Positions 38,105 through 59,388 of a DNA stretch of 60,280 nt are shown piece by piece. Origin of the DNA: Candidatus Omnitrophota bacterium (GTDB lineage: Bacteria; Omnitrophota; Gorgyraeia; Zapsychrales; Zapsychraceae); contig JANQMA010000023.1 in assembly GCA_028280285.1 (NCBI GenBank), positions 1 to 60,280 of the forward strand, read 5' to 3'. Below the pieces are notes generated by a model. It made no database searches. It saw only the letters and a list, made by a program, of their open reading frames with translations, and had not been told where the DNA came from. The position numbers and the translations under genes are program-made. Positions within the stretch are counted from its first letter, which is position 1. Every line of letters begins with the position of its first letter.

Positions 38105-38106
38105 TA

Positions 38107-40715: not shown

Positions 40716-40720
40716 TTAAT

Positions 40721-40797: not shown

Positions 40798-40812
40798 CAT
40801 TATCAAGTGCAC

Positions 40813-40921: not shown

Positions 40922-40923
40922 GC

Positions 40924-42507: not shown

Positions 42508-42509
42508 TT

Positions 42510-42965: not shown

Positions 42966-43603
42966 TTGTATTCCAACTCCTCCAGCGTTTTAAAACTGTA
43001 AATCTTTAAAGTAAAATCACACTTCAGTGAAGGATATTCTCGCCCGGAAGCCATTTCAATATTGCTGATCGTAATGAGTTGTTTAAATTCATCCAAATAG
43101 TTAAAAAATTCCATAAAAGAACTAAACGTCCCCTCCACCTTAATCTTAATGGGCATTGCCGCTAAGGTGAGAATACGTTTAACATCACTTTGGCTTTTAA
43201 ACTTTTCGCGGGTTTTCCTCGCCTTTCTTTTCTTGGCAATAAAAGCCTGCGGTGTGGAAACACCCTTTGCCGTCGTCACAGCCTTAAATCTCTGTGTTTT
43301 CATATCGATAATCTTTACCTCTGTGCTGCCTGCATAGGCCGAGATCTCATCCAAAAATGAGGGGATATCCTGCTCACTGAAAAGGTATTTGTCAAATTCT
43401 TCCTTTTCGGTTTCATATTGTTCAATATATTGTTTAAACTCAGCGATATTTGCCTCAACCTTAGCCAACTGATCTTTTTTAGCCGTCCACTTTTGCTCAA
43501 CTTCCGTATAGTCCAGATGTTTATTGAAACTCTGTACGAGGAGCATAACAATAAATGCACAAACACAAAATATAACAATTTTATTAATTTTCGATCGTGT
43601 CAT
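42962..43603 (-). CDS. pilO: PilO-like inner-membrane pilus alignment protein
   Basis: 213 aa from ATG 43603 (GGAG RBS). TM helix, coiled coil, and a C-terminal ferredoxin-like segment (IKVEGTFSSFMEFFNYLDEFKQLITISNIEMA). The track's start at 43723 overlaps 140 nt of the upstream gene. Confidence 0.6.
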   Translation of the reverse strand: MTRSKINKIVIFCVCAFIVMLLVQSFNKHLDYTEVEQKWTAKKDQLAKVEANIAEFKQYIEQYETEKEEFDKYLFSEQDIPSFLDEISAYAGSTEVKIIDMKTQRFKAVTTAKGVSTPQAFIAKKRKARKTREKFKSQSDVKRILTLAAMPIKIKVEGTFSSFMEFFNYLDEFKQLITISNIEMASGREYPSLKCDFTLKIYSFKTLEELEYK

Positions 43604-45095
43604 CTTTTTTCTCCGCCTCACGCAACTTGGCAAAAATCCCAAAATTATAAAGCTTCTTATCCTCAACTTCTTTTTCGCGCAAGAAGTCAAACTTACCCTT
43701 TTGTAAAATCGTTGAATCATCAATGCGGCGAATTAACTCGGCAATCGGCTCCATGGTAAAAGCTTGCCCCTTAATACTCGCACGGCCTGATTCACTAAAT
43801 TTAAATGATGTTAAGGCAATATCCTGTGGCAATTCAGCCGAAACAATGGAAAACACCTGCGCCCAAGAAACACGATTGAGCTGTTTGACATAGGTTGCTT
43901 GTGCAAGCACCTGTTCTTTCGTCGCTTCATATTCTTTTCGCTTAGCAAGCAACATTCCTTCTTCTTTTTTACGTGCCTTGATAGTGCTCCTTAAAATTTT
44001 TGTCTCTTTTTTCAAAGAAGTGATCTTTTGGCTCAAATTGTAACTATGCGTCCCAAAAACCAATAAGGCGCTACCTGCCACGGCTAAAGCGACCACAGAT
44101 ACCTTCACTAGATATTTCTTTACCTGAAAAAGCTTAATAAAATGATCTGATGGAAAATCCAGTTTTAAACGGTTGGCCCGTGCAATAATCGGCATCAGCG
44201 CCAGAACATAAATAGGATTAACATTGTGCTCACCCTCAACCGCAATATTTGTAATCTTATTGAGAAACGGCACAATAACATCGATATCCGCAACAGCATT
44301 CCTCATGATATGGCCTAAATCAGGAATTTGTTCTTGATCCCAAATGAGCGCCATGCGGCCGACTTCTTTATTGCCTTTCTCAAGCCCGTAAGAACGTAAA
44401 ACACGTTTTAACTCCGCCACCCACGCGGCAATCACCCGCTCTTTTGCCTCTTGGGAGGCAGCAAGTACATATTGCTGTATCCCGGATGAAAGCTTGTAAA
44501 CTAACTTGTATTTGCCGTCCTCAATGATACTGAAATAGGCCTCTTTTTCATCAAGATAAAAAATCGCATCACAGCTTGTGGCATAGTTGTCGGCTGTTTG
44601 AATCAGTGGTGCAATTTCTTTCAAATTGAGAGGCGAAACCTCAACATTGCGTAACAATAACTTTAAGTCATCTATTTCTTTAAGGGACCCTTTTAAAAAT
44701 TGACGGTTCACCGCTGCGAAAACAACTTTATTTTTGCCTTTCGCGGCAGGATAACGTTTATAAATAAATTCAAATTTGCCTTTTTGAAAACTTGGCAGCC
44801 TTTCTATTTCACTGGAGACCACCTCCTGCATTTCTTTATGCGACAATGCCGGCAGAGTGACTTGATGCACAATACTGTCGCTGCGTGAAATAGTCAGATA
44901 CACGCTGTCCACATAGATCTGCTTCTCAACGATCAAGTTATTAATCGCTTGCGCAAGGTTGCCCTCGACCGACAAGTCTACCCCAACGGCAGCCTTGCCG
45001 GCCTTAAGCACACAATACTCCTTATTACGTTTTTCAGCGTAAACGTAACGCAATGCACTATCCGCAATATCTATGCTTAAAATGCCTTTCTTCAT
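43584..45095 (-). CDS. pilM: PilM-PilN fusion (actin-like ATPase domain + TM + PilN-like region)
   Basis: 503 aa. MKKGILSIDIADSALRYVYAE (PilM-type N-terminus). TM helix VVALAVAGSALLVFG near aa 335, followed by a coiled coil and a PilN-like domain. AAGGA RBS. Confidence 0.65.
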   Translation of the reverse strand: MKKGILSIDIADSALRYVYAEKRNKEYCVLKAGKAAVGVDLSVEGNLAQAINNLIVEKQIYVDSVYLTISRSDSIVHQVTLPALSHKEMQEVVSSEIERLPSFQKGKFEFIYKRYPAAKGKNKVVFAAVNRQFLKGSLKEIDDLKLLLRNVEVSPLNLKEIAPLIQTADNYATSCDAIFYLDEKEAYFSIIEDGKYKLVYKLSSGIQQYVLAASQEAKERVIAAWVAELKRVLRSYGLEKGNKEVGRMALIWDQEQIPDLGHIMRNAVADIDVIVPFLNKITNIAVEGEHNVNPIYVLALMPIIARANRLKLDFPSDHFIKLFQVKKYLVKVSVVALAVAGSALLVFGTHSYNLSQKITSLKKETKILRSTIKARKKEEGMLLAKRKEYEATKEQVLAQATYVKQLNRVSWAQVFSIVSAELPQDIALTSFKFSESGRASIKGQAFTMEPIAELIRRIDDSTILQKGKFDFLREKEVEDKKLYNFGIFAKLREAEKKDDTIEN

Positions 45096-45121
45096 AATCA
45101 GTTCCTTAAATACCTCTAGTA

Positions 45122-45493
45122 TTATTCTTCGTCTTCCTCAAGGTCCTCAGGAAAATCGCCTGTCGCTGTTGCCACTTTTCCGTCGGCGGTGTCCGGATCA
45201 TCCGTAATAGAGTACACAGCACCAAACGGCGCATCGTCATTCGGATTTTCATCTAAATAATCACCTGCGATTAATTCAGCTTCAATATCATCGCAAAGAT
45301 CCCAATCTCTTTCCTGCGTGTAGCACAACATAATCGCCTCATCAATCGTATCAAGATTCGAAAGATGTTTGGCAACGTTTGCACGCTCAATCGCTTTAAC
45401 GGCATTTGGCAGAATTAACGCAATCAAGATACCTGCAATAACCAAAACGATCAAAACTTCTGTTAATGTAAATCCTTTGTTTTGTGTCTTCAT
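45122..45493 (-). CDS. Type IV (pseudo)pilin, probable major subunit, with an acidic C-terminal tail
   Basis: MKTQNKG/FTLTEVLIVLVIAGILIALILPN class III signal with Glu+5. Tail DDPDTADGKVATATGDFPEDLEEDEE. ATG at 45493 (GGGAGA upstream) is preferred over 45508. Confidence 0.8.
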   Translation of the reverse strand: MKTQNKGFTLTEVLIVLVIAGILIALILPNAVKAIERANVAKHLSNLDTIDEAIMLCYTQERDWDLCDDIEAELIAGDYLDENPNDDAPFGAVYSITDDPDTADGKVATATGDFPEDLEEDEE

Positions 45494-45589
45494 TTTTTCT
45501 TCTCCCATGTTTCTTTTATTTAACTTTTGTTTTTATTTTAATCAATTGAGCTGATACATCCTTCGTCAGCCTTCCCCATCTATATAAAC

Positions 45590-45605
45590 AGCAAATACTG
45601 TGCCA
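45590..45605 (-). promoter_or_regulatory. Sigma-54-type promoter upstream of the pilin gene
   Basis: Minus strand reads aTGGCACagtatTTGCTg, matching TGGCAC-N5-TTGCW with correct GG/GC spacing. It lies 7 nt past the pilC stop and ~85 nt upstream of the pilin ATG. Confidence 0.6.
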
Positions 45606-45611
45606 TGTTCC

Positions 45612-46811
45612 CTATGTTAATCCCTGCCAAATGGAAAATACCGGTAAATAGATCGCCAAAAGTGTGATTACGATGATGATGCCTACAAAAACAATCAAAG
45701 CCGGCTCAATAATCGTAAAAAATTTATTCTGCCTGTATTCGACCTCTTCATCAAAATGATGTCCCAGCGTTTCTAACACATCGACAGTCCGCCCGCTGGC
45801 CTCGGCGATTCCAACCATTTCAATCAGCATTACCGGAAAAGTGGCTGCCTCTTTAAAGGCTTCGTATAAAGAAACCCCCTGCTCTACCTTTTCCTGCACA
45901 TCATTAATCCCGTCACGGATGTATTGATTACCCGCGGTCGTTTTTGAAACCTCAAAACTTTCAACCAAAGGTACGCCCGCCCCTATCATAATCGACAAAG
46001 AATTAATGAAGCGCCCTAAAAACATGGACTGCAAAATGTATCCCCAAAACGGAATTTTCAGCTTTAATTTATCAATGTAATACGAAAATTTTTCTTTTTG
46101 CCGCATAAATTTGTACATACCAAAAAAGATTATGCCAATAATAAGAACACTAAGAATAAATGCCCACGAGCGCATAGCCTCTGATATCCCAATAACAATC
46201 CTTGTTAAAGCCGGAAGCTCAACGTTCAATTTAAACAAGACTTTTTGAAAAGTAGGCACAACAAAGGCAAACATACAGATAATCACCAAAATCGCAAATG
46301 AAACCACGATACTGGGATAAAGGGTGACTTTTTTCGTACGCATAATATTTTGCCGGCGCTGCTCCAAATACTGCGTCAGCCTTTTAAGGACAGCAACCAA
46401 TCCCCCTGCCTTTTCCGCGACAGAAATAAGCGCAAGATACAAAGGTGGAAAGATATTAGGGAACTCCCCCAAGGCCTCTGAAATCTTTTTCCCCTTCTCC
46501 AAGTTAAGACGCACATAACTAATCACAAGTTGCATCGTCTTATCTTCTGTTTGCCGCCACAAAATATTCATGGCTAACAAAATCGGAATCCCTGATTCAA
46601 TTAAGGTCGAAAGTCGACGCGTAAACATAAGAAGAATATCAAGTTTTACTTTTTTGGCGTAAATGTGTTTCTTATCATAAGGCTTAGCGCCGATAAAATA
46701 AAAGCTTGAACCGCGCAAATGCTCTTTAACCTCACTCACACTCCGCGCCTCGATAAACCCGAATAACGGCCTACCTGAATCGTCTTTTAATTTATAAATA
46801 TAACTTTTCAT
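45612..46811 (-). CDS. pilC: Type IV pilus platform protein PilC/GspF
   Basis: 399 aa. Duplicated T2SSF domains, three TM segments, typical ...GIPILLAMNIL... and ...GAGVPLVESFEV... segments. Confidence 0.85.
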   Translation of the reverse strand: MKSYIYKLKDDSGRPLFGFIEARSVSEVKEHLRGSSFYFIGAKPYDKKHIYAKKVKLDILLMFTRRLSTLIESGIPILLAMNILWRQTEDKTMQLVISYVRLNLEKGKKISEALGEFPNIFPPLYLALISVAEKAGGLVAVLKRLTQYLEQRRQNIMRTKKVTLYPSIVVSFAILVIICMFAFVVPTFQKVLFKLNVELPALTRIVIGISEAMRSWAFILSVLIIGIIFFGMYKFMRQKEKFSYYIDKLKLKIPFWGYILQSMFLGRFINSLSIMIGAGVPLVESFEVSKTTAGNQYIRDGINDVQEKVEQGVSLYEAFKEAATFPVMLIEMVGIAEASGRTVDVLETLGHHFDEEVEYRQNKFFTIIEPALIVFVGIIIVITLLAIYLPVFSIWQGLT

Positions 46812-46817
46812 ATTCGT

Positions 46818-48467
46818 CTACTCTATTGTAGTTATCCGCATCACTTCTTCGAGCGTCGTTTGTTGCTGCATCACTTTCATAAGTCCAGATTGTCTTAATG
46901 TCGTCATACCTTTTTTTTGGGCATGGGCGGCCAAATCACTTTCGTCGGCCGATTTAACAATCATGTCTTTCATTGCTTTATCAATACATAAAATCTCAAA
47001 GATGCCTGTACGCCCGACATAACCTGTATTAAAACATTTATCACACCCAACAGCTTCAGCTAATTTTGTGCCATTTTTAAATGGGACGTACCCTTTAATC
47101 AAATCGATCGTTTCTTGATCCGGTGTATACTCCCGACGGCAATCCGGACAAAGCGCACGTACCAAACGTTGCGCCACAACACCGATCACAGAAGAACCGA
47201 TGAGAAACGGCTCAATACCCATTTCGAGTAAGCGTGTCACCGCGCCGGCCGCCGTATTGGTATGCACCGTGGATAAAACCAAATGCCCGGTTAATGCCGC
47301 ACGGATCGCGGCATCCGCTGTCTCCACATCGCGGATTTCACCGAGCATAATAATATCCGGATCATGACGCAGGATATTGCGCATGGCACTGGCAAACGTA
47401 TAACCGATGTAACTATTAACCGGTGTTTGATTAATTCCTTCCAGTTCATATTCAACCGGATCTTCAACCGAAATAATATTTTTCGCAACATCATTGAGTT
47501 GTGTCATCAGCGAATAAAGCGTTGTGCTTTTGCCGGCACCCGTCGGACCGGAAACAAGAATCAGACCGTGCGGGCGGCCCATAAGCTCAGTCATCATGTT
47601 TACTTCCGCTGCATCCATACCGAGTGATTCAAATGAACGGCTTGCAAATTTTTTGCTGAGAATACGTAAAACCAGATTCTCACCGTAGATATTACATAAT
47701 GTCGAGATACGCAGGTCATATTCAACACCGGCATGAGTGAACGTCGTGCGTCCATCCTGCGGACGACGGGTTTCGGCCACATCCATACCCGCAATAATTT
47801 TAATACGCGCAATGACATTGCGCTGAAGCTCCCGCGCTACAGGCGACTTTTCATACAAAACACCATCAATGCGGAAACGCACACGCATCTTATCTTTATG
47901 CGGCTCAAAATGAATGTCTGACGCTCTTTCGTGAATCGCGGCATGAATAATCGAATCAACTAAACTGACAATAGTGCTAGAAGAAGCTTGTTGGCTGTCT
48001 TCTTCCTTTTTCTCTGCATCAAGTGTAAGAAATGAATGCGCATGCTCTTGCAAATGTTCTTGAATTTCTGTGAGGCTCGCCATCACCGGTTCAATCAGGT
48101 AGCCGCTTTTGTATTGAATTTCTTGCAGAGCATTTAAATCAAGGGGATTATTAGTCGCGAGTGTAATGGTATTGCCGTTAACGGCAATCGGTAAGACCTG
48201 ATGGGTTTGGGTCAACTCATAGGAAATAAGTTTAAATGCTTCTTTATCAATCGTCTCATCTGTTAAACTGACATAAGGCAGTTGAAACATCTTAGCCAAA
48301 TTCTCGGCCAATTGCTTTTCTGTTACCCACCCTTTATCGACAACCAGCTCGCCGATACGCCGGGGATCAACTTTCTGCACCTCCAGCACCTCAAACAGCT
48401 GGTCCTGTTCAAGAAGTCCTTCACGGCAAAGGACCTGCCCTAGTTTTAATGATTGCTCTTCTCCCAT
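46818..48467 (-). CDS. pilB: Type IV pilus assembly ATPase PilB/GspE
   Basis: MshEN-like N-terminus (KLGQVLCREGLLEQDQLFEVLEVQ). Walker A SGPTGAGKSTTLYS, DPDIIMLGEIRD, GHLVLSTVHT, CPDC...CDKCFNTGYVGR. ATG at 48467 (MGEEQSLKLG) is preferred over the track's start at 48536. Confidence 0.9.
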   Translation of the reverse strand: MGEEQSLKLGQVLCREGLLEQDQLFEVLEVQKVDPRRIGELVVDKGWVTEKQLAENLAKMFQLPYVSLTDETIDKEAFKLISYELTQTHQVLPIAVNGNTITLATNNPLDLNALQEIQYKSGYLIEPVMASLTEIQEHLQEHAHSFLTLDAEKKEEDSQQASSSTIVSLVDSIIHAAIHERASDIHFEPHKDKMRVRFRIDGVLYEKSPVARELQRNVIARIKIIAGMDVAETRRPQDGRTTFTHAGVEYDLRISTLCNIYGENLVLRILSKKFASRSFESLGMDAAEVNMMTELMGRPHGLILVSGPTGAGKSTTLYSLMTQLNDVAKNIISVEDPVEYELEGINQTPVNSYIGYTFASAMRNILRHDPDIIMLGEIRDVETADAAIRAALTGHLVLSTVHTNTAAGAVTRLLEMGIEPFLIGSSVIGVVAQRLVRALCPDCRREYTPDQETIDLIKGYVPFKNGTKLAEAVGCDKCFNTGYVGRTGIFEILCIDKAMKDMIVKSADESDLAAHAQKKGMTTLRQSGLMKVMQQQTTLEEVMRITTIE

Positions 48468-48768
48468 ATCGTTCTGATTGTAAAATATTTGCCCCCCAAA
48501 ATATAAGCATGAGTCAAAATACTTAACACGTACCAAACAAATAAATTACACTTCTTTTACTATTTTGACTGTTCCCTATGAAACGCCGTGGCTACGTTTC
48601 TTAAAGCTAGAGAAAATCGGATTGTATAAAAATGTTTAAACAACTATCGACTATCAATTATGGACTATAATAGGGAAATAATCAATAGGACAAACCCGGA
48701 CAAGCACGAGTGCCATTTTTCGGCAAATTACCATCATTAGCAGGTATTATTACCGTAACCATAACCGA

Positions 48769-51700
48769 TTAAATCATAGCCGGCTCAATGGCGGATAATT
48801 CGTACTCCTCTTCTTCCTGGCGGGGTGCAAGGCCAAGGAGCGGAAGCACGCTTGGCAGAGGAACAAAATTAATAATGACAGGGGTAAAGCCGCGCACATT
48901 GCCGAAATCCTCAAGTGCCGCCGGGTCAAAGTCGATCGTCACACCAGAGCCCTGACGCTCTACCTCAATATCATTCATATCAATCCCACCAACATCCGTC
49001 ATCACAGCATCATCTTTACCATCTTTCTTAACTTTTATTTGATAATAGTCGGGCTGCGTGTCTCCGCCTTTATTATAAGGCCCATTAACAACTTCAACCC
49101 CTTCAGGATAATGATCTGACTCAATTTCTATAATTTCATATTCTTCATCATCCAAACTTGCCAAATCAATCCCAGCTAAGTCAACCATTGTCTCACCTGT
49201 ATCAACAGACGTATCCAACACCCCGGCGTCAAGCGAAGTACGATATTGATTTAAAAGAGCCCCTGCGTGAATCACTTCTTCCATATACACATTCGGAGTA
49301 TGAAAACTCGGATATTCATGCATTCTATATCCAAGAGAAAAACTCTCCCCGTTTCGTGCTAAAACAATCGCATATGGCAATAGAGAAAAAATATACTCTT
49401 CAATTTTTTCTTCATTTAACCTGTCGTAATCTTTTGTATTCAGACTAGCATTAATTTTTTCCAGTTTTTCTTTTAAAATATCATGCTGTTGCTTCGCCAA
49501 CCGCGCAAGAGCTTGATCTTCCTTTTCCGGTGATTTAGTTCTAATAACTTCTAAATAAGCTTCTTTTCTTTTTTGTTTCCACGTCGTAATTGCCAACCTA
49601 TCGCGTATCATCATTTTTTGCCAACTATTTTGAAACGAATCTTTACTATGTTTATTTCGATAATTTAAATAATCCTGTAATAAATAAACTCCAAAAGTCG
49701 ATACAAATAGAATCCCTACAAAAGTCGTCAGTAAAACTGTCTGAAACGTGTCATCCGACATACCCAACACCGCGGCATCGGTATTATTTAACACATAAAG
49801 TATTTCGCGCGCCTTTACACGAAGATCTAAATAATCAACAACAGTATCACTCGATCCTCTATCTTTAAAATTAACACGTCCTGCTGTAATATCGTCAACA
49901 GCTGAAATTTTTTCTAAAACAATATTTAATCTTCGTGCTTGATCGGCATCTAAGGCATAGCGATATTTATGAACAACCAAAAGTTCCTCTAAAAATCGAT
50001 CCCGCTCCTGAACTAATTGTTGTTTAGTTTCACCAAACATAGCATAAAACATATTGTCCCCAACATATTCTATTTGCTCTTGCGAAAAATACAGCGGTAA
50101 CACATCTAAATCTAAAAACTCCTCTACTGCCCGATCAATATCTTTTCTCGAAACATTTCGATTTTTTTCATTCCATTGCTCTTTCAAATTCAAAACATGA
50201 AGTCGAGCCGATAACTTTCTTGCAAATTTTCTTACCTCATCATATAAAATGATTTCTCGCTTATTGCCATCTTCTTTCCAAGCTTGAGAAGAAACTTCTT
50301 CAAAAATATCTTGAACAATATTAACCTCACTTAATTTTTCGATTAATCTTTCTCGCTGGTCATATCTAAATTCACCTAAATAGTCGTTTAACAATTTTAA
50401 CTTATCTAACACCTTTGCCTTTTCTTCCAATAATGATTTTTGCATATCCAAAACATAAATCTGCTCAGCTTCGCTTTCGGCATAAAATGCTTTGTATCTA
50501 TTTCTTTCTTGAAATAAATCACCTTTCACAAAACGATTAACAAAAGAAGATATTTCAGCCCTATTATCACCACGCCCGTCTTCCAATTGATAAAAATGAT
50601 CAAAATCCGGCATTTTTTCTAAAAAGCTATCTGTTGTTCTTTTGGTATCAGAAGTTGAGACACTCTGAGGCGTAAAAACAGTGTCGTAACGATCCATTGT
50701 TTCAAATGTGGCTAGCTCCAAATCACGTTGTAGATTAATATCAAACCCAATATTTAATCCATTCATGTGTTTATTAACAATACCCTTATAGGGCGCATAC
50801 TCTTGTTCAGTCATTGGGTTAGCAATATACGCAAATGTAATATGCCCGACAAATGGAAATTGTGCATGAATATCAGTCCTTTTAGATATCACTGTACGAA
50901 TAACATCAATACCTTTAACAGTTTCTCTATTTTGAGGCTCCACCAAGGCAAGCAATAAAAATGGCGCAAAAGAGCCTAATTCTGTTATTTGAAAATTAAG
51001 ATTGTCAAATGCCTTTGTATCATGTAATTGCTCAAAAGCCGTCTTTACCTTTTGGACAACAATCTTCTCAACATCCTGCTGCGGCTTTCCTTGATATTCA
51101 ATATTCCTTTCTTTAATACGCGCAAGATCATCTGGATTAACCAAATCCTTAAACGTCATATGAAAAGAATCTTCATCCACAAATGCAAGCTTATCCCTTA
51201 GTCCCGCCTCGTTAATATCTTGTTCAATAGCACGTTTGACATCAACAAGCTGACTTTGTGTCCTATCATCAAAGCGAACAATCACTGTATTTCCACGAAA
51301 TTCTTTAAACTCCAAGCTATCTGGATCAAGCTTCGCCCTTGCCGGAATCACATCCTGTTCAGTAAGCTCAATTCGTTCATTCCGTAAATTTGAAAATTCA
51401 TTAAATGCTGCTTTTCTACCGGCACCAATTAATACTTTAGCTGCCTGCTCTAAATCATTAGTGTCGCTTGCAAAAATACGTATGCGATAACCAAATGTAT
51501 TTCCAACCTGAGTAGGGTCTTCTTGTAATTCTATTCCTTTTGAGTCAAGTAATGCCACTACTTGATCTAACTTAATTTCAGGAATTGTCACTTCGATTTG
51601 AGTATTATTAATAATAGCGCTCTGTCCATAAATTCGTTGCACTTCCTCCCGCAATTCATCCAACACCGCCGCGTCGTCTGCGGGCCCCTTTGCAGCTTCC

Positions 51701-54700
51701 TTTAACACCGCATTATCACCATCATCTTTTTTTGTAAAATACCCTAATAATATACCAAAGCTTCCTACAACAACCATTGCTACACCTAATACAGTAAAAA
51801 AATCCGCAGACGACATTGTGGCAAAATCATCAACATCAGCTTTCTGTCCCAACACCGCTGAGTCAACTCTAAACACTCTATCAGTCACATCCTTATTATC
51901 TCCTTGTGTTCTTTTATCCACAATATCAATCGCTAACTTCACATAACCACTTCGTTCAGTAGTCTCATAAAGATTAGCTGATTCGCTTATAAGAGAACGT
52001 ATGTGCTTCAATTCAATATCTGCATTTTCGCCTAATTCCATATAGCGTTTGATTTGGTCTAATACCGGTGGGTGCACATATACTGAAACACCGCCTCTAT
52101 TCCACATTTCATCAACTATCTTTTCATCTGCTTTCTTAAGAATTTGTTTTTTATAAATCTCATATTGAACTGTTAAATTTAGATCTTTTAAAGGCTCATA
52201 AGTCCTTAAAAGATACCCTGCACGCGCCCATTCATCAATAGAAACATTTGGAGTATTAAAACCAGGGTAATCATACATTGTATATTTTAGAGAAAATTTT
52301 TCACTGTTTTGAGCCAACAAAATAGCACTAGGTAACAATGAAAAAATATTTTCTGTTATTTGTTCATCTGACATTTTGTCATAATAACGCGTATCTAATG
52401 TCTCATTTATTCTTTCTAATTCACCCTTTAAAAAGTCAAACTGCTCTTTAACAAGCTTGGCTTTAATCTGATGCCTTCTATCTTTTGATTTACTATTGAC
52501 TATATTGTAATAAGCATTTTCACGCTTCTCTTGCCAATCCAATATTCCAGTAGAATTAAATAGCGCCAACCAATCTTCTTCAAAACCTTTAATAACTTTA
52601 TTTTCACGAAACTTTAAATATCCCCCTAAAAGTGGCGCGCCTAAAGCAAGTCCAAGTGTAATCACTAGAAAGGCTACCGTCTTAATTGTCTCAGCTGTAT
52701 CAACAGACATACCCAACACTGCATCATCTTTTTTAATAACTTCAACTCTAACTGAAGTAGTAAAATCTTCTTTTTTAGGTTCTTCAGGAAGGCTAGCAGG
52801 GGGACCACTCGCATCTATCTCCCCTATTTCGTACCACGCCATCGCTTCTGCATACCCTGTCTCATCAAAAATAGCTTCATGATATATCACATCAAACTTT
52901 TCATGAGCACGGTAAATTTCGTCGCCAATAATATCTATTACTTTTTGAATATTATTATTAGTAACAGCATCATATGCGTGTGGCTTTAGTTTATCCTGGA
53001 TAGCTTGTCTTGCCTCTCTGGATGTTATACGATCCCATTTTAATAAATCACCTAACTCAAACTTCTTTATCGCCTCAGATAATAATTCATACTGCGGCGT
53101 CTGTTCCGCATACCATCCGTCAGGTCGCACGCCTCGTGTTCCCCCCATATTGGAACCGGTCATTGTAGAAGAGAAATATTCATACTCCTTCGCGACACGA
53201 TTCATAACAGTATTTTTCAAATACTCTAATCCACGATAATCCCCCGATAAATACATTTCTCCCACAAAATCAACCGCATCTTTAATTGCTGTATGAGGCA
53301 ATGAATCCTCATTATACCTTTCCATCTCACCGGTGAGCTCATCGGCGGTGAACATCTTGTCTTCAGCAGTTAACTCCTGTAGCTCATCCCACAAATCGTT
53401 TAAATACTGCTCATCGCCAGTTTTCTTAGCATTCATTGCCTTTTCTGTTAAAAAATCCGCTGCTTTTATTTCATCCTGCATAAATCCAAACTGCTCTAAC
53501 GCTCTCTTGGCTTCAGAAGAAACATACTTATCCGCATGGGCAAGATTATTTTTTAATGTTCTAACGGCGCGCCAATAGCCAAGCTCTCCTAATGTGCTCA
53601 TCGGCTGCCAAGGATAAGGATGGTGACCATTTTTTGCCGCAGCCATGTTGGCAATCACGAGATCTTCTGCAGTAAATTCCGAAGGATATGAAAGAAATAA
53701 TTTAGCGACCTGCTCATGAATCTTTTTGTTAGAATAACCGAGAAAAGGTAGTACATACTTATTATAACTCCCATCATAATCTTGACGTGCTATTTCCCAT
53801 CCTATTTTACGAATAGCATCTAATATTTCTTGTTCAGAATGTTCATTTGGATTTTCTAAAATTTTAATTGCTGTTTTCAAGAACACAACAATCGTCGCGG
53901 CATCAGTTTCTTGCAATGTCGCACGATCTTTTTTAAGAATGTATGGTTCATTATCTCCTGTTGGAACATTCTTAGACGGATCATTTAAACCGGAAAAAAT
54001 AATATAATAAGGTTCTTCGTCCCTGTCGTGAATATTTAACGGTCGCTTTTGTCTAATAGCCGACGTAGCATTGGCACTGCTGCGTTTTCTTTCGATTTTT
54101 AATGCTATTTGACTAGGTCTGTTAGCCAGGTTTTTTAACAATTCCGGCAGTTTTACAATAAGACCCTTTGTTTCACCGGAACGCAAAGTTGTTTTGGGTT
54201 TATTGGTATCTTTGCCTTCTTCTATAAAGCCAACCTCAGCTTTTAAGCCCACATCGGTATCATCCCATTGAAGATAGGCGTCAACATTTGTAATCGACAT
54301 TTTTTCCGTGCCATTATTTTCCAAAAAAACATATAAATTATTGTCATACCATTCAACCGAGGCGCCTGGAATAGAAGTACGTATGCCTAGAACGATAAAA
54401 TCGGCCGTGGTTTTAGTGACATTAACTTCTTTAACACCGTCCCACTGCGTTGGCATCTTAACTTTATCCGGAACAAAATTGCGAATAGAGTCGACGTTAA
54501 ACGATGTTTGTGCGCCTGCCGTACATACCCCGGCCAAACACACCGTCATCAAACTTACAGTAAGCATTGGCAATACCTTAGATTTAAACAGCATCGCCTT
54601 ATCACCTTCGATGACTTTTTTGACAAAGACTCCGATTAATGGGTTTTCTTGGCTTATACGGGAGAAAAGCTCCTTTTGTGTTAGTTTCACCGCATTAAGC

Positions 54701-57700
54701 AATCCGCCCATTTCTTCAGAAAGCTCATTCTTTTCATCAGACGTAAGTTCCTTATGAAGCGCGATCGCATCCTTCCAATTTTGTGCCGATAATATCTTAA
54801 GGTCACCTTCTACCGTCCAGTCTCCACTCGCATAGTTAGCTATCAGACGAAACGTTTCCCCCACAATGTCATAAAGCGTGGTTTCTTCTCTTTGGTAGTC
54901 AACCGTATAGCTGACAGGTTTGATTTGCCCTTCTTCAAGAAGGCCTTCACTTATATATTTTGCAATGACACTATTAAACTGACCCTTAGTTCTTAATTGC
55001 TGCAGTGGTGTGTGCATATATAAAATTGTCTGTTCTTGCCCATAAGTAAAAAGGCCTCCATCCTTCATCAAATCGATTGACTTGGTAAAATTTTGCACAG
55101 TATACAAAGCATCCGGTTCGATCAAAACAATGTCATCGTTTTTAAGATCTTTTGCAATATTCGCAAATTGTGAGCCTTCTTCCTCAGCCATTTTTATCAT
55201 AAGTATGCGTATTAAATCCGCTTCTGACACCGTCTCATCGGTTACTTCGGCCATTTTGCGTAAATCAGCCGTTGCTCTTCCTTTTTTACCGGAAATGAGA
55301 ATTTTGTTTCCAATTCCTTGTTGATAAAGATGCATAATTTTTGTTAGGGCGTTTATATCGCTGTTGCCCGGTATCATTAAAATGTCGACACCTGCAGTTG
55401 CCAGCTCTCGTTCGTTTACATCATTATGCACAAGCTTACGAATCAGAGAATCTTCCTTTGTGGCCACATCCAATACGTGGAGAATATGGTCGCCCTTCTG
55501 TTGACGGGAATCCCGACTCTCATCGTTGACCAAATCCGTATACAACGACTCAACCAAATCTGGATTTTTCATACTTCCCAAAACAATCTCCGCCATCGCT
55601 TTTCTGTTGTTTAAAGATTCATTATTAACTAGTGCCTTCATTTGAACTGTAGCCACTATATAATCTTTGCCTTTCCCAAGGGTGCCTTCATCCGTTTCTT
55701 GTGCCGCTTTATTAAGAGGTTTATCAGGATCGATCGTGGGCTCTACAATTTCCGGTGGGATATTAGTGAATAAAAATGTCCTTACTTCATTCGTTTTACG
55801 ATGTTTGTAAACGGCATAGAGCGGATCATCATTGGGTATTTTTTCCCAATTAAAAAACTGAAAAGCTTCTTCAATAAATGCCGCTTCCTGTTGCGCAAAA
55901 AAGTTGGCATATTCGGTATTAATTATATTTTCATATGCCTCTAATCGGTCCGCTAAAGAATTGTCAGCTTGTGCCAAAATATTACGATTGCGTTCAAACT
56001 GATGCAATTCTTCGACATCCATTGGTTTTTCACGAACCACACCAATATGAAAATAATTTCGAATTTTTTTTCTTTCAGGACGAGGCAATTGCCGCACCTG
56101 CTCATAACGCTCCTCAATCGATTGACCGGTAATTCTCTGTTCCGCCAGATCAAGTAACGCGACACTACTGTACTCATCATAAGCCTGCTTTAACTCCCCC
56201 CTTGCAATAAATCTACTCACAATTATTTTCGGACGTGAAACACTAACAAAATCTACCAGCTCGGGTTCACTAAGCATCTCTTCTTTAACACTCTTTATAT
56301 TCCAGTGTACATAAGGATCTGCTGCGGACGCATATTCAACAATTTCAGTAAGCAAAACCCCCTGAAGGACCAATCTTACTTTTTCATCATACACACGCTC
56401 GTTTAAAATATTCTCTGGAACCTGATTTTTATTATAGGAGACAACTTCCGATGTTAACCTGTTTTTATACGTTATAACATTCTTATCTTGAGAAATCTTT
56501 TTCCATAATTCTTGTAAGTTGGAACGATCATAAAAATACGCAAACCTTTTAATCATTGTTTGCAAGCGCTCTGCTACGATCCAATTTTCTTCACCTCTAC
56601 CACCTTTTTTAAAATAGTCATATACATACTTCACCTTGGCATAAAACTCGGGATCACGTTTTGCTAAATTCCGCTCCAAATATTTGAAAAGAAACCCGGG
56701 CACTTGATGTCCGCCTAAAATGTCAGGGTCTCCATATTTATACAATTCTTGAAATATTTTTGTATCGATTTTCTTTTTATCAACATTCTTATCGATCATT
56801 TTTGTGATCGTCTCTTCTTCCAATACAAAAATAGCATTATGGTTTAAGAAAGCCTTGCCGCCATACCAGAATAAGATGAGTCCTTCTGGTATAAGCAAAA
56901 TAGGTGCATAAAAAATGGAGGCGACTACGGCTGCCACGGCCCCCACACCTATTAGAGCTTTGGTGACCCATGACAATTTCTTAGGAAAAAATATTTGATC
57001 CATCTCAGCGGATACTTCTTGAATAGAGTATTTATGCGCATTTTTTATACTCCTTTCCGCCTCTATCAACGTCATCGCCGCGTCGTCTTTACCGTTTTCC
57101 TCATTTCCTTTCGACGACACATTGCCATAATATTTCTCCTCCAAAAGATTAACTTCATCTAGAGTAGCTGGTTTTTTTAATTTATCAGGATAAATCAAAT
57201 AATCATATAGTTTGCCTAAGTCAGAATTGACCTCTTGTGTTAATTCATATAATGCATTGCTATATTCTATATTCCCTTTTTTAAATCCTTCTTGGAACTC
57301 ACGCTTAAGTCTCATTTCTTCCTGTCCAACAAAAGTAATTAGCTCATTTATGCGTGAACGCGTACTCTCATAGCGCAAAGAATTAATGACACTCTCAATA
57401 AATATTAAAAAGATGTTTATCAAAAAGGCTGAATCGGCATCAACATCTTCCGCCATCGCCGCGGCGTCTGTATTCTGTGAACCACCTTCCTTAAGAACAG
57501 CATCATCTTTATTATCTTTCTTAACTTTTATTTGATAATAGTCGGGCTGCATGTCTCCGCCTTTATTATAAGGACCATTAACAACATCAGCCCATTCAGG
57601 ATAATGATCTGACTCAATTTCCATAATTTCATATTCTTCATCATCCAAGTTTGCCAAATCAATCCCGGATAAGCCAACAATTGTCTCACCTGTATCAACA

Positions 57701-59388
57701 GACATACCTAACACCGCGTCGTCTTTTTTGTCATTCCTTGACATTTCATCAAGCTCTTCTTCTGATATAAACGGATCGTCTTGTATTTCTCCCACCCCTT
57801 CTTTACCCAGCTGCTGTAAAACTTTATCATTTATCCATTTGTGTCGCCTTTTCAGCAATCTCAGTTTTTGAATAGCTTTTTGTTTTTGCTCACCACTCAA
57901 ATTTGGAATAGTCTCCTCCAAATTCTCCATTTCTTGTTCTATAGATTCTAACCTATCCACATTTTTGCTAACGGCCATAGCCAGCCTAACCCCTACATAA
58001 ATTATAAAAACCGCTATGACTATGCCAATCTCCGGTGGAAAAGAGTCTTGTTGAGCAAAATAGTTATTATCAAAAAGGTTCATCAAGATCATATATTTTC
58101 TAACTAACGCCGCCGCGTCGTCTGCAAACCCCTCCACATCTTCCTTATCTTCCTTGCCAATCAACATAGCAAAGTCATCCTGCCACCCTAATTGCTTTAA
58201 TTCTTTTGCTTCTTTTTTAGCCAACGCATCCATTGCCGCACTATCTTGATCCGCGATAACGCGTGCAGTAGCTTGATACCGATCACCTACCCCTGCAAAG
58301 GCTGCCATATCCGCATTGTCTGTTGGGGCAATGATGATGGCCGTATCATGAAAACCACCGGAGAAATATTTGCGTGGAATGATGGTTTGGCTTATTGCGT
58401 CGTAGTCTTCTTTAATAAAAGAAAACACGCCCTTCTCATAGGCCTGCATGTAGCGGTTGTAGATTTCGTTGGTTATTTTTTCATCGCCGGTTTCGATCCC
58501 ATCGACTTTGTTTTGATCAGCATAGACTTTGGATAAAAGACTGTTTTTGATATTTTGTTTGTACCATTTGGCGAGGATCAGGGAATGATAGATCTGGCGC
58601 AGTGGTGCGAAATTCTTACCTTGATTTATTTCACGTTCGATTTCGGGAAGGATGAGCTCGCGGATGACTGCAGCGTGTAGCGGTAAGCGTTTAGCGTTTA
58701 GATTACTACTTTCTTTATTCTGATCACTGCTATCCGCTATACGCTCTTCGCTATACGCTAAATAATCTTCTTCCAACATAACTTTCATCCTGGAGTTCAC
58801 TACATACACTGTCCTGTCATACTCATACACACTCGCACTTTCCGGTAAGATCCATACTTTATTAAATAAATCGGTCGGAACTTCATTGATACCGTACTTT
58901 TCGCGGGCCAACCTTTGCACGCGCTTCCAAAACTTCTTACCCAGTTCATCTTCCGGATACATCATGCTGGCGGTTAGTTGTTTTAATATATAATCCTGCG
59001 CAAGCAAGTCACGTCCAAGCGCCGTCTTACCTAATTCATCGGGAATAATGCGATCCTTTTCATACGGAGACAAGTTCACCCACAAATCATCTTGCGGAAC
59101 TGTCATGGCGGCCAAAAAGTACTTTACAAGCTTTTCGGTCTCTTTCTTAACCTCATCAGCATCAAGGGCAGAATTGCCACTATCAATAATAAAATCAAAT
59201 TGGAAAGGATTATCGGGGTGGATAGTCATCCCCTTCAAAAGCACCGGCACATAGGCAGGGCTTTGCAGAACCATAGCCCCCGGAACCGGCAGATTAAGCG
59301 CATTGATTGATTGCGCGTAACTTGGTGGAATTATAGAAGTAGTTGTAAAACAGATAATAATGATACAAGAAATGATTCGGTTAATCAT
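48769..59388 (-). CDS. Giant modular envelope protein (3,539 aa), paralog of the 2,089-aa ORF; function unknown
   Basis: Uninterrupted 10.6-kb ORF. Sec-type signal MINRIISCIIIICFTTTSIIPPSYA. N-terminal domain and C-terminal tail (GGIDMN...GFTPVIINFVPLPSVLPLLGLA) are shared with the other giant ORF. 13 D-x-A-[AV]-[ML] junctions plus one GDKAML variant. At least 7 internal hydrophobic helices. Internal Sec-like signal at aa 1599-1628. 2H-phosphoesterase-like HxTx pair (H2743, H2849). DUF218-like segment (aa ~1327-1467). Confidence 0.9.
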   Translation of the reverse strand: MINRIISCIIIICFTTTSIIPPSYAQSINALNLPVPGAMVLQSPAYVPVLLKGMTIHPDNPFQFDFIIDSGNSALDADEVKKETEKLVKYFLAAMTVPQDDLWVNLSPYEKDRIIPDELGKTALGRDLLAQDYILKQLTASMMYPEDELGKKFWKRVQRLAREKYGINEVPTDLFNKVWILPESASVYEYDRTVYVVNSRMKVMLEEDYLAYSEERIADSSDQNKESSNLNAKRLPLHAAVIRELILPEIEREINQGKNFAPLRQIYHSLILAKWYKQNIKNSLLSKVYADQNKVDGIETGDEKITNEIYNRYMQAYEKGVFSFIKEDYDAISQTIIPRKYFSGGFHDTAIIIAPTDNADMAAFAGVGDRYQATARVIADQDSAAMDALAKKEAKELKQLGWQDDFAMLIGKEDKEDVEGFADDAAALVRKYMILMNLFDNNYFAQQDSFPPEIGIVIAVFIIYVGVRLAMAVSKNVDRLESIEQEMENLEETIPNLSGEQKQKAIQKLRLLKRRHKWINDKVLQQLGKEGVGEIQDDPFISEEELDEMSRNDKKDDAVLGMSVDTGETIVGLSGIDLANLDDEEYEIMEIESDHYPEWADVVNGPYNKGGDMQPDYYQIKVKKDNKDDAVLKEGGSQNTDAAAMAEDVDADSAFLINIFLIFIESVINSLRYESTRSRINELITFVGQEEMRLKREFQEGFKKGNIEYSNALYELTQEVNSDLGKLYDYLIYPDKLKKPATLDEVNLLEEKYYGNVSSKGNEENGKDDAAMTLIEAERSIKNAHKYSIQEVSAEMDQIFFPKKLSWVTKALIGVGAVAAVVASIFYAPILLIPEGLILFWYGGKAFLNHNAIFVLEEETITKMIDKNVDKKKIDTKIFQELYKYGDPDILGGHQVPGFLFKYLERNLAKRDPEFYAKVKYVYDYFKKGGRGEENWIVAERLQTMIKRFAYFYDRSNLQELWKKISQDKNVITYKNRLTSEVVSYNKNQVPENILNERVYDEKVRLVLQGVLLTEIVEYASAADPYVHWNIKSVKEEMLSEPELVDFVSVSRPKIIVSRFIARGELKQAYDEYSSVALLDLAEQRITGQSIEERYEQVRQLPRPERKKIRNYFHIGVVREKPMDVEELHQFERNRNILAQADNSLADRLEAYENIINTEYANFFAQQEAAFIEEAFQFFNWEKIPNDDPLYAVYKHRKTNEVRTFLFTNIPPEIVEPTIDPDKPLNKAAQETDEGTLGKGKDYIVATVQMKALVNNESLNNRKAMAEIVLGSMKNPDLVESLYTDLVNDESRDSRQQKGDHILHVLDVATKEDSLIRKLVHNDVNERELATAGVDILMIPGNSDINALTKIMHLYQQGIGNKILISGKKGRATADLRKMAEVTDETVSEADLIRILMIKMAEEEGSQFANIAKDLKNDDIVLIEPDALYTVQNFTKSIDLMKDGGLFTYGQEQTILYMHTPLQQLRTKGQFNSVIAKYISEGLLEEGQIKPVSYTVDYQREETTLYDIVGETFRLIANYASGDWTVEGDLKILSAQNWKDAIALHKELTSDEKNELSEEMGGLLNAVKLTQKELFSRISQENPLIGVFVKKVIEGDKAMLFKSKVLPMLTVSLMTVCLAGVCTAGAQTSFNVDSIRNFVPDKVKMPTQWDGVKEVNVTKTTADFIVLGIRTSIPGASVEWYDNNLYVFLENNGTEKMSITNVDAYLQWDDTDVGLKAEVGFIEEGKDTNKPKTTLRSGETKGLIVKLPELLKNLANRPSQIALKIERKRSSANATSAIRQKRPLNIHDRDEEPYYIIFSGLNDPSKNVPTGDNEPYILKKDRATLQETDAATIVVFLKTAIKILENPNEHSEQEILDAIRKIGWEIARQDYDGSYNKYVLPFLGYSNKKIHEQVAKLFLSYPSEFTAEDLVIANMAAAKNGHHPYPWQPMSTLGELGYWRAVRTLKNNLAHADKYVSSEAKRALEQFGFMQDEIKAADFLTEKAMNAKKTGDEQYLNDLWDELQELTAEDKMFTADELTGEMERYNEDSLPHTAIKDAVDFVGEMYLSGDYRGLEYLKNTVMNRVAKEYEYFSSTMTGSNMGGTRGVRPDGWYAEQTPQYELLSEAIKKFELGDLLKWDRITSREARQAIQDKLKPHAYDAVTNNNIQKVIDIIGDEIYRAHEKFDVIYHEAIFDETGYAEAMAWYEIGEIDASGPPASLPEEPKKEDFTTSVRVEVIKKDDAVLGMSVDTAETIKTVAFLVITLGLALGAPLLGGYLKFRENKVIKGFEEDWLALFNSTGILDWQEKRENAYYNIVNSKSKDRRHQIKAKLVKEQFDFLKGELERINETLDTRYYDKMSDEQITENIFSLLPSAILLAQNSEKFSLKYTMYDYPGFNTPNVSIDEWARAGYLLRTYEPLKDLNLTVQYEIYKKQILKKADEKIVDEMWNRGGVSVYVHPPVLDQIKRYMELGENADIELKHIRSLISESANLYETTERSGYVKLAIDIVDKRTQGDNKDVTDRVFRVDSAVLGQKADVDDFATMSSADFFTVLGVAMVVVGSFGILLGYFTKKDDGDNAVLKEAAKGPADDAAVLDELREEVQRIYGQSAIINNTQIEVTIPEIKLDQVVALLDSKGIELQEDPTQVGNTFGYRIRIFASDTNDLEQAAKVLIGAGRKAAFNEFSNLRNERIELTEQDVIPARAKLDPDSLEFKEFRGNTVIVRFDDRTQSQLVDVKRAIEQDINEAGLRDKLAFVDEDSFHMTFKDLVNPDDLARIKERNIEYQGKPQQDVEKIVVQKVKTAFEQLHDTKAFDNLNFQITELGSFAPFLLLALVEPQNRETVKGIDVIRTVISKRTDIHAQFPFVGHITFAYIANPMTEQEYAPYKGIVNKHMNGLNIGFDINLQRDLELATFETMDRYDTVFTPQSVSTSDTKRTTDSFLEKMPDFDHFYQLEDGRGDNRAEISSFVNRFVKGDLFQERNRYKAFYAESEAEQIYVLDMQKSLLEEKAKVLDKLKLLNDYLGEFRYDQRERLIEKLSEVNIVQDIFEEVSSQAWKEDGNKREIILYDEVRKFARKLSARLHVLNLKEQWNEKNRNVSRKDIDRAVEEFLDLDVLPLYFSQEQIEYVGDNMFYAMFGETKQQLVQERDRFLEELLVVHKYRYALDADQARRLNIVLEKISAVDDITAGRVNFKDRGSSDTVVDYLDLRVKAREILYVLNNTDAAVLGMSDDTFQTVLLTTFVGILFVSTFGVYLLQDYLNYRNKHSKDSFQNSWQKMMIRDRLAITTWKQKRKEAYLEVIRTKSPEKEDQALARLAKQQHDILKEKLEKINASLNTKDYDRLNEEKIEEYIFSLLPYAIVLARNGESFSLGYRMHEYPSFHTPNVYMEEVIHAGALLNQYRTSLDAGVLDTSVDTGETMVDLAGIDLASLDDEEYEIIEIESDHYPEGVEVVNGPYNKGGDTQPDYYQIKVKKDGKDDAVMTDVGGIDMNDIEVERQGSGVTIDFDPAALEDFGNVRGFTPVIINFVPLPSVLPLLGLAPRQEEEEYELSAIEPAMI
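49000..49218. repeat. Intragenic direct repeat R2 (~216 nt), copy near the 3' end of the giant gene
   Basis: Encodes VLDTSVDTGETMVDLAGIDLASLDDEEYEIIEIESDHYPEGVEVVNGPYNKGGDTQPDYYQIKVKKDGKDDAVM. About 90% nucleotide identity by eye to 57493-57711. Confidence 0.9.
57493..57711. repeat. Intragenic direct repeat R1 (~216 nt), copy near the 5' end of the giant gene
   Basis: Encodes VLGMSVDTGETIVGLSGIDLANLDDEEYEIMEIESDHYPEWADVVNGPYNKGGDMQPDYYQIKVKKDNKDDAVL. Confidence 0.9.
58673..58758. repeat. In-frame palindromic heptamer element, (GCGNNTA)x4 ... (TNNNCGC)x4
   Basis: gcgtgta gcggtaa gcgttta gcgttta ... tatccgc tatacgc tcttcgc tatacgc. Encodes YSEERIADSSDQ...SSNLNAKR. Confidence 0.7.

Follow-up and report, generated by a model that had tools for sequence, protein, structure and literature searches.

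Two giant Omnitrophota proteins belong to a family with conserved end domains and a short peptide that very probably marks its module boundaries

Two giant open reading frames (ORFs), A and B, whose products share their two ends and nothing in between, raise the question of what kind of protein is built in this way and, with A standing just upstream of a type IV pilus (T4P) cluster, whether it works together with the pilus. Both lie in a 60,280-nucleotide (nt) stretch of a Candidatus Omnitrophota bacterium (contig JANQMA010000023.1 of assembly GCA_028280285.1), the whole of which is called the window here, from a phylum of abundant, ultra-small bacteria that are probably predatory or epibiotic and whose very long proteins are an acknowledged puzzle. 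We find that A and B are two paralogues of one large multigene family, found almost only in Omnitrophota, and that a pentapeptide, which we have named the delimiter, recurs in both between a conserved N-terminal head and a conserved C-terminal tail, where it very probably marks the boundaries of otherwise unrelated modules.

A and B had been picked out in an earlier inspection of the letters alone (the sequence-only reading), and both are present on the minus strand where that reading had placed them. Their principal parts are listed below with window coordinates, strand and amino-acid (aa) numbering; the scores given for the head come from a hidden Markov model (HMM) described afterwards.

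48769..59388 (-): ORF A, 3,539 aa, belonging to the family, with at least 10 modules bounded by delimiters
59314..59388 (-): A aa 1-25, Sec-type signal peptide (MINR, hydrophobic core, SYAQ/S), by eye, conserved in the alignment
58351..59313 (-): A aa 26-346, head domain (WVNLSPYE, GRDLLAQDYILKQLTAS, FNKVWIxP, LKVMLEEDY, IPRKYFSGG), HMM 558 bits
48991..58350 (-): A aa 347-3466, variable module string with 7 internal hydrophobic segments
48772..48990 (-): A aa 3467-3539, tail domain (GGIDMN...FTPVIINFVPLPSVLPLLGL and an acidic end)
9251..15520 (-): ORF B, 2,089 aa, also belonging to the family
15422..15520 (-): B aa 1-33, Sec-type signal peptide (MRRNTPFNK, core, SAFAQ/P), by eye
14471..15421 (-): B aa 34-350, head domain, HMM 489 bits
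9569..14470 (-): B aa 351-1984, variable module string
9254..9568 (-): B aa 1985-2089, tail domain (GGIDLN...LVPVIINVQPMTNLPLFLGL and an acidic end)

The N-terminal regions of A (aa 2-368) and B (aa 7-377) align by BLASTP at 53% identity (E = 4e-119), which gives a shared domain of ~350 aa, and the head HMM, built from 32 other proteins with A and B excluded, recognizes both. The tails (aa 3467-3521 of A and 1985-2054 of B) match only weakly as a pair, with 34% identity and E = 0.011; a tail HMM built from 8 other proteins, again with A and B excluded, nevertheless scores both (A 69.5 bits, E 1.4e-17; B 38.2 bits, E 8e-8; Z = 1e6) at their extreme C-termini, and the ~70-aa match is therefore genuine. 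BLASTP aligns nothing else between A and B, so that the middle regions are indeed unalignable. Judged by eye, both signal peptides show a positive n-region ahead of a hydrophobic core of 16-20 residues, and an A-x-[A/S] site. The shared ends, the unalignable middles and the signal peptides had been noted by the sequence-only reading, which could place neither end in a named family: sequence searches of Pfam, NCBIfam and PDB, with single sequences and with profiles, return nothing significant for head or tail. Rhs, RTX, haemagglutinin and cadherin matches are absent as well.

The head is an alpha/beta domain of ~330 aa, and its AlphaFold2 (AF2) model (predicted local distance difference test score, pLDDT, 83.7; predicted template-modelling score, pTM, 0.84) consists of long helices and a 13-residue beta-hairpin. 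A Foldseek search with this fold finds zero significant matches in PDB or in BFVD, a set of viral predicted structures. The top-ranking structures are ClyA-type pore-forming toxins (NheA, SmhA and MakB), at E ~0.4 and TM ~0.1, and we do not treat them as evidence. The tail, with the consensus GGIDxN...PVIIN..P..LLGL over ~70 aa, is a small domain that AF2 models at moderate confidence in a short family member, P0016 (pTM 0.53). With head and tail matching nothing in Pfam, NCBIfam, PDB or by fold, the earlier proposal of an undescribed, modular, signal-peptide-bearing family with conserved ends and swappable cargo holds.

The head matches more than 1,343 database proteins, and the named ones are nearly all from metagenome-assembled genomes (MAGs) of Candidatus Omnitrophota. 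A scan of one genome per GTDB species gave at least 589 matches to the family; those with titles, among the matches listed, belong to Omnitrophota or to MAGs labelled 'uncultured Planctomycetales'. A single MAG, OFTM38, holds at least 8 family loci, and tandem arrays of 2-4 genes are frequent. Pairing of the two ends was assessed in 79 fetched related loci, which contain 100 head-bearing ORFs, 76 of them complete. The tail terminates 66 of these 76, and among the 10 complete head ORFs without it, 8 directly precede a tail-bearing ORF in another frame, as split genes. Searching with A at full length gave 119 long relatives of 1,965-5,730 aa, each matching just ~10% of A; HMMs that exclude A and B find the head in 119/119 of them and the tail in 114/119. 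The two ends thus occur together in other genomes, as the sequence-only reading had expected. Complete two-ended members among the fetched loci span 681-3,112 aa, and 8 more exceed 3,600 aa and run off the fetched DNA. The general build is a Sec-type signal, a head of ~330 aa, from 1 to more than 15 unrelated modules, and a tail of ~70 aa.

Some members depart from this build in their gene structure. The frame-split members (L001, L008, L020, L023, L057, L061, L063 and L066) could be sequencing-error frameshifts, pseudogenes or cases of programmed frameshifting. Family genes also stand nearly end to end in tandem (L029, at 2723-6001 and 6005-9088, as well as L040, L046, L076 and L019), and in the L029 pair the two genes share a frame with one stop codon between them, such that read-through would join two capped chains. 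A tail protein called as 80 aa, P0154 (L080 3-911, plus strand), lies within an open frame of ~288 codons that has no head and no obvious signal peptide, and in each of the four places shown the start of its gene is ~650 nt from the end of the contig; it indicates that the tail occurs outside the head-capped family as well.

The delimiter is a feature that the sequence-only reading missed. In A and B it reads D-x-A-[A/V/M]-[M/L/V] (e.g. DDAVLG, DPAAM, DAAAM, DKAML), with ~15 copies in A and 8 in B. The delimiters located in the two proteins are listed below, together with the transmembrane (TM), signal-peptide-like and twin-arginine translocation (TAT)-like segments that follow some of them.

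58231..58245 (-): A aa 382, DSAAM
58162..58176 (-): A aa 405, DFAML
58105..58119 (-): A aa 424, DAAAL, then a hydrophobic segment at 449-471
57709..57723 (-): A aa 556, DDAVL, start of a duplicated 81-aa module
57493..57507 (-): A aa 628, DDAVL, end of the duplicated 81-aa module
57454..57468 (-): A aa 641, DAAAM
57073..57087 (-): A aa 768, DDAAM
54589..54603 (-): A aa 1596, DKAML, directly followed by a signal-peptide-like segment (FKSKVLPMLTVSLMTVCLAGVCTAGAQT)
52714..52728 (-): A aa 2221, DDAVL, start of a duplicated 184-aa module
51850..51864 (-): A aa 2509, DSAVL
51703..51717 (-): A aa 2558, DNAVL
51664..51678 (-): A aa 2571, DDAAV(L)
49765..49779 (-): A aa 3204, DAAVL, start of the second 184-aa copy
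49000..49014 (-): A aa 3459, DDAVM, 8 aa ahead of the tail GGID
14453..14467 (-): B aa 352, DQAVM, then a TM segment at 373-393
13253..13267 (-): B aa 752, DPAAM, then a twin-arginine-like segment (DMNRRRFIRTVGALMVLG)
11879..11893 (-): B aa 1210, DPAAM, then a TAT-like signal (NRRKFVKTAVSAAGALALGVDAQA; TIGR01409, sub-threshold)
11081..11095 (-): B aa 1476, DAAAM
10523..10567 (-): B aa 1652-1666, paired DTAAL...DPAAM
9641..9688 (-): B aa 1945-1960, paired DFAAL...DPAAM, ~25 aa ahead of the tail GGID

The delimiter is both frequent and specific to the family. Its rate in A and B, 3.7-3.8 per 1,000 aa, compares with 0.08 expected from composition (~45-fold), and among the ORFs of at least 100 aa in all frames the rest of the window holds only one further instance. 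In the middles of the relatives D.AM occurs at 1.5 per 1,000 aa, versus 0.094 in neighbouring ORFs, a 16-fold excess, and non-family ORFs of at least 900 aa contain zero delimiters. The consensus in the relatives is D-x-A-M-[L/V]-[A/S/T], and lineage variants (SSSP[V/I], ASSPV, NPAML and DSSML) occupy the equivalent positions; among the 119 long relatives D-x-A-M is the dominant type in 77 and SSP in 25. The position of the motif relative to the caps is equally marked. In A and B a delimiter follows the head and the final one precedes the tail, and in independent sets of relatives a delimiter precedes the tail by no more than 40 aa in 52 of 98 cases (background 1.6%) and follows the head by no more than 80 aa in 44 of 74 (background 3.5%). 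It again precedes the tail in headless tail-bearing proteins. The median spacing between junctions is ~280 aa, and the linkers that carry the delimiter are disordered in the AF2 model of P0016, with pLDDT below 50. Pairing of delimiters, as seen twice in B, was rejected as a general rule, since 12% of all gaps are 8-40 aa long, versus 9.9% at random.

The modules themselves obey the same boundaries. The duplicated modules of A and its one recognizable cargo domain are as follows.

57481..57723 (-): A aa 556-636, 81-aa module, copy 1, 78% identical to aa 3387-3467 (E 2e-34)
48988..49230 (-): A aa 3387-3467, 81-aa module, copy 2
52183..52728 (-): A aa 2221-2402, 184-aa module with TM segment, copy 1, 42% identical to aa 3204-3387 (E 6e-41)
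49228..49779 (-): A aa 3204-3387, 184-aa module with TM segment, copy 2
51043..51312 (-): A aa 2693-2782, 2H-phosphodiesterase-like cargo domain (PF08975, E 2.9e-5, 24.5 bits, cut-off 21)

Both internal duplications of A begin exactly at delimiters. They are visible only after A is split into segments and composition correction is turned off; whole-length self-BLASTP of A and of B shows no off-diagonal pairs, and the split-segment rerun was made for A only. When relatives are compared with one another, the edges of homologous segments fall no more than 10 aa from a delimiter in 27-31% of cases versus 6% at random, and one shuffled module of ~410 aa (L026 2816-3223, equivalent to L070 649-1079) has delimiters at both ends in both proteins. 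Modules are thus gained, duplicated and exchanged as units cut at delimiters. We consider it very probable that this architecture, two caps with the delimiter at the module boundaries, is that of the family as a whole.

The cargo in A and B consists mostly of orphans, several of which open with their own membrane or export segment. The PF08975 match is the sole gathering-level Pfam match in A, the B cargo from aa 752 to 1951 has one match among 1.84 billion representative proteins, and nine shorter relatives have zero Pfam matches. The long relatives are far richer in recognizable cargo. Their enzymes of glycolysis and nearby steps comprise PGK, enolase, PGI, TIM, PFK, pyruvate kinase, GAPDH, aldolase, FBPase, PGAM, hexokinase and PPDK/PEP synthase; other carbon enzymes are PGM/PMM, transketolase, transaldolase, isocitrate lyase, malate synthase, and acyl-CoA and amino-acid dehydrogenases; and NDK, NUDIX, methyltransferases, radical SAM enzymes, an M48 peptidase with UbiB kinase, and HEAT and ankyrin repeats are also present. 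The embedded enzymes (PGK, enolase, PGI, PGM, PPDK, TIM and hexokinase) are often complete with native ends, and the delimiter sits at those ends. In L017, for example, a full PGK (ending ...LPGISVL) is followed by T-DAAML and 10 aa, then by a full enolase, DFAVL and, lastly, DPAMM before the tail, whereas P0264 and P0290, from lineages that use the other motif, hold PGAM, UDPGP, PGI, PGM and PGK each between SSP[V/I] delimiters. The L017 frame (4181-12637, plus strand) is 2,819 aa from stop to stop and encodes a Sec-type signal and head, the tandem PGK/enolase pair and one hydrophobic segment at ~aa 990.

Hydropathy places hydrophobic segments of A at aa 449, 650, 805, 1603, 2232, 2522 and 3214, and all 7 lie 10-40 aa after a delimiter. 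The rule that every module starts with a signal or TM segment, true for A (7/7), fails family-wide: the middles of the relatives contain 13 strongly hydrophobic segments in 113,000 aa, and these are unassociated with delimiters.

A motif placed so regularly could act on the nucleic acid rather than on the protein. The giant ORFs could be strings of individual genes whose stop codons have been lost, with modules made from internal starts at the Met of D-x-A-M, or the delimiter could be a DNA-level recombination signal. The conserved Met does occupy the place expected for the initiator Met of an enzyme or a signal peptide, module-exchange breakpoints coincide with the motif, and GCG makes up 26 of the 38 Ala codons inside the A and B delimiters versus 24% elsewhere, an over-use that also fits recent copying of linkers within these two genes. 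Across genomes, however, the codons of the motif vary (GCG 41% and GCC 39%; GAT 54% and GAC 46%), no purine-rich ribosome-binding pattern is found upstream, and synonymous sites are just mildly GC-biased; selection on the delimiter therefore acts at the peptide level, and we reject it as a nucleotide-level motif or internal ribosome-binding site. In addition, lineages with SSSP[V/I] have no Met at the junction and show the same architecture, and hundreds of genes keep an open frame, over as many as 5,730 codons, which implies selection for read-through. Both nucleic-acid explanations are accordingly highly improbable in our judgement.

For a signal acting on the protein, we tentatively propose that family members are exported capped polyproteins processed at their linkers. 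Each would be synthesised as one chain and its head exported via Sec; the linker peptide would be recognised by a dedicated factor, and this would most likely be a protease, cutting the chain into its modules, with the head and tail as constant caps for carrying or sorting. Cutting is favoured by the presence of a short conserved peptide at native protein termini, within disordered linkers, and by the oligomeric enzymes embedded in the chain. The TAT-like signals that follow DPAAM in B (aa 752 and 1210) normally need a free N-terminus and so point towards cleavage, as does the placement of all seven hydrophobic segments of A shortly after delimiters. Furthermore, the occurrence of two chemically different motifs at the same positions, depending on lineage, fits co-evolution with a trans-acting factor.

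Known systems offer partial precedents for such a design. Viral polyproteins (picornavirus, flavivirus, potyvirus) come from a single ORF that holds many complete proteins, with a short, lineage-specific recognition peptide at every junction. The capped family resembles them in combining complete proteins in one ORF with a short, lineage-specific junction peptide; unlike them, it is cellular and multi-copy, has no recognised protease module, and carries a signal peptide and terminal caps. MARTX toxins of Vibrio and its relatives have conserved N- and C-terminal regions around a variable, recombining effector array that is cut at short unstructured linkers, and with their capped array of variable modules they are the closest functional analogue of the proposed polyprotein. 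There is no sequence or fold relationship between the two: A and B lack RTX/GD-rich or haemolysin-type repeats and Peptidase C80 (Pfam, NCBIfam), and the family has a Sec signal rather than type I secretion and metabolic or orphan cargo, not cytotoxic effectors. The C-terminal domain (CTD) of the type IX secretion system in Bacteroidota is a conserved domain of ~70-80 aa on diverse cargo with Sec signals. Like it, the tail has a junction just upstream where the domain could be removed; unlike it, the tail has zero CTD matches (Pfam, NCBIfam), a different motif (GGIDxN...PVIIN) and an obligatory head partner. The family is also distinct from polymorphic toxins (Rhs/YD, CdiA/haemagglutinin), of which there are no Pfam matches and in which the C-terminus is the variable tip, whereas here it is the conserved part. 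Autotransporters, including the chlamydial Pmp proteins, differ as well, with no Autotransporter or Chlam_PMP match and a tail of ~70 aa in place of a beta-barrel of ~250-300 aa.

Several observations weigh against a processed polyprotein. No protease is identified, neither fold nor sequence of the head matches a peptidase, and the head has no invariant His or Cys. The delimiter is fuzzy, with ~40-47% of the junctions tested by regular expression lacking it, and an internal hydrophobic segment is absent in about two thirds of the relatives (77/100; 79/119). The tail is also found on smaller headless proteins, one examined case being without an obvious signal peptide. If the chain were left uncleaved, the location of the tail would be inconsistent across the family, cytoplasmic in A, B and L017, whose membrane segments are odd in number, and on the exported side in most other members. 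A working signal peptide would mean that ATP-using enzymes such as PGK are exported, which is hard to square with ordinary metabolism. Lastly, signal peptides were judged by eye and membrane segments by hydropathy only.

The chain might instead stay whole, as an envelope or surface scaffold in which the modules form a beads-on-a-string coat, an adhesin or an enzyme scaffold and the pentapeptide is a hinge, a modification site or a docking peptide. In one version the pentapeptide would be bound by the head or tail of other members, and the paralogues would knit a mesh as cohesin and dockerin do. A multi-copy family with several motifs per chain suits this picture, as do the constant company of motif, head and tail and the location of the motifs within disordered linkers; the 7 internal hydrophobic segments of A fit a multi-pass anchored protein, and the literature on large Omnitrophota proteins leans towards a role as an extracellular coat, in adhesion or as extracellular enzymes. 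However, complete oligomeric enzymes with native termini (enolase, TIM, PGI) fit release better, and signal or TAT-like segments directly after delimiters would be misdirected in an intact chain, for example at B aa 1210, which lies downstream of an exported module. Adhesin-type repeats are absent by Pfam, and the motif in most lineages lacks the Ser/Thr/Pro-rich character of a glycosylated hinge. We therefore regard an uncleaved scaffold as unlikely, while processing at the linkers remains our working proposal.

The second half of the question concerns the neighbour of A, the T4P cluster.

36830..48536 (-): type IV pilus cluster downstream of A: pilB, pilC, pilin, pilM/N, pilO, pilP-like, pilQ and three pilin-like genes

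The sequence-only reading described this as a complete T4P operon. A cluster running from pilB to pilQ, with pilins, is indeed present, in the order PilB (46818-48536), PilC, a pilin (45122-45508), PilM/N, PilO, a PilP-like lipoprotein, the PilQ secretin and three pilin-like proteins; it falls slightly short of complete, as the window contains neither PilD nor PilT. That reading had further suggested that the family works with the adjacent T4P or type II secretion system (T2SS)-like machine, as its substrate, tip adhesin or structural partner. The stop codon of A, at 48769, does lie 232 nt upstream of the pilB ORF, which shares its strand, the gap shows no terminator-like site, and in one published study 13 of 14 giant Omnitrophota genes stand beside T2SS/T4P loci. 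On the other side, the same gap contains three promoter-like sites, B is not beside a pilus cluster and most paralogues lie elsewhere, and neither A nor B has a pilin-type N-methylation motif (N_methyl; Pfam, NCBIfam), in contrast to pilus components. When the PilB, PilC, PilM/N, PilO, PilQ and pilin-like proteins of the window were compared by BLASTP with all ORFs of the 79 related loci, a PilB/PilQ homologue was found within ~10 kb at only 2 of them, roughly the chance level. Clustering of 1,452 neighbouring ORFs revealed no conserved neighbour, only promiscuous families (histidine kinase/response regulator, ABC-F, glycosyltransferase and TPR). With 2 loci out of 79 and no conserved neighbour, a family-wide link to the pilus is unsupported; we hold such a partnership to be very improbable indeed, and the cluster beside A is best read as an incidental neighbour. 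A subset of the family may be associated with T2SS/T4P loci, since published giant Omnitrophota genes adjoin them.

The relation to those published genes defines what is added here. Long and giant multi-enzyme Omnitrophota proteins have been described as 'Archaeovorins' (West-Roberts et al. 2023, bioRxiv 10.1101/2023.11.21.568195) and as class 1 'multi-enzyme metabolic clusters' (Nielsen & Lui 2026, bioRxiv 10.64898/2026.06.07.730766), and long multi-enzyme proteins with signal or membrane segments are also found in Seymour 2023. The first two accounts report large genes adjoining T2SS/T4P loci and N-terminal regions without identifiable domains, and one of them states that the cleavage points of the chains are not known (bioRxiv 10.1101/2023.11.21.568195, 10.64898/2026.06.07.730766). 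A conserved head, tail or junction motif is described neither in these two accounts nor in Pfam, NCBIfam or PDB. Long multi-enzyme Omnitrophota proteins and giant genes beside T2SS/T4P loci are thus already known, and the caps and the delimiter are the undescribed addition. The giants and the capped family share the phylum, signal peptides and/or membrane segments, N-termini without annotated domains, and, in the relatives, tiled unrelated domains that include glycolytic enzymes, PGM, PPDK, NUDIX, methyltransferases and HEAT repeats. The combination of TM segments and tiled enzymes that is typical of Archaeovorins is divided in our material, as A has its 7 hydrophobic segments with one enzyme-like Pfam match and the relatives are enzyme-rich. 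Some Archaeovorins lie beside T2SS/T4P loci, and so does A, unlike B and 77 of the 79 related loci. A and B also differ in size, at 2-3.5 thousand aa versus more than 10-30 thousand, below the length criterion of more than 30,000 aa, and in having no SecA_DEAD/preprotein-binding, C39 or S8 domain (Pfam, E up to 0.1).

Further features of the window touch A and B or their surroundings. The G+C content of both genes is 0.36-0.40, versus 0.42-0.46 in flanking housekeeping genes (window 48000-58000 and 10000-14000), and their GC skew is more strongly negative, down to -0.30, which together fit fast-evolving or imported cargo. Directly upstream of A, a 188-aa ORF (59440-60006, minus strand) has a weak match to an IS200-like Y1 transposase (PF01797, E 1.2e-4, sub-gathering) and may be a repetitive extragenic palindrome (REP)-associated or IS200-type element. 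B lies within a toxin-antitoxin island, as the earlier inspection had noted, and is bracketed on the minus strand (7626-9172 and 15645-16279) by four small modules of this type: VapC/VapB, DUF2442, HicA/HicB and HigB with a helix-turn-helix (HTH) antitoxin. A third tail is found within this island.

8304..8459 (-): orphan tail fragment (GFVPVIINVQPMTNLPLFLGLADDLPDDPEPYEAAKAAIGDLS...), the last ~45 codons, ~85-90% nt identity to the 3' end of B, counted from the alignment

The fragment lies ~800 nt past the stop codon of B, on the far side of the HicB, HicA and DUF2442 genes, and could be the remnant of a deleted tandem paralogue or the result of a toxin-antitoxin cassette inserting into the tail-coding region. 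At the end of the T4P cluster, a pilin-like protein of 709 aa (38586-40715, minus strand) combines a prepilin N-methylation motif with carboxypeptidase-regulatory-like domains and is unusually large; two more pilin-like ORFs, of 159 and 424 aa, follow it. A UvrD-like helicase (1,052 aa) and a PD-(D/E)XK nuclease protein (932 aa) at 30726-36769 on the minus strand form an AddAB-like arrangement that is unrelated to the capped family.

The window yields a concrete protein grammar for at least the size class of Omnitrophota proteins between 0.6 and 6 thousand aa. The head and the tail can each be converted to an HMM, and the junction peptide predicts module boundaries to within a few residues, as is seen at native enzyme termini in the relatives. 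With complete ATP-dependent glycolytic enzymes behind a Sec signal, either the chain is processed before it is exported, or the compartment is an unusual one, or the enzymes are delivered into another cell. A bolder version of our proposal, which we consider doubtful, is that the cut sites are real and that these are Sec-targeted cellular polyproteins, with a head and tail of novel fold as caps, yielding sets of complete proteins, including most of glycolysis, perhaps delivered outside the cell or into a host or prey. If this is true, the same grammar of head, delimiter, module and, finally, tail may also apply to the giant proteins of the phylum and parse chains of 10,000-150,000 aa.

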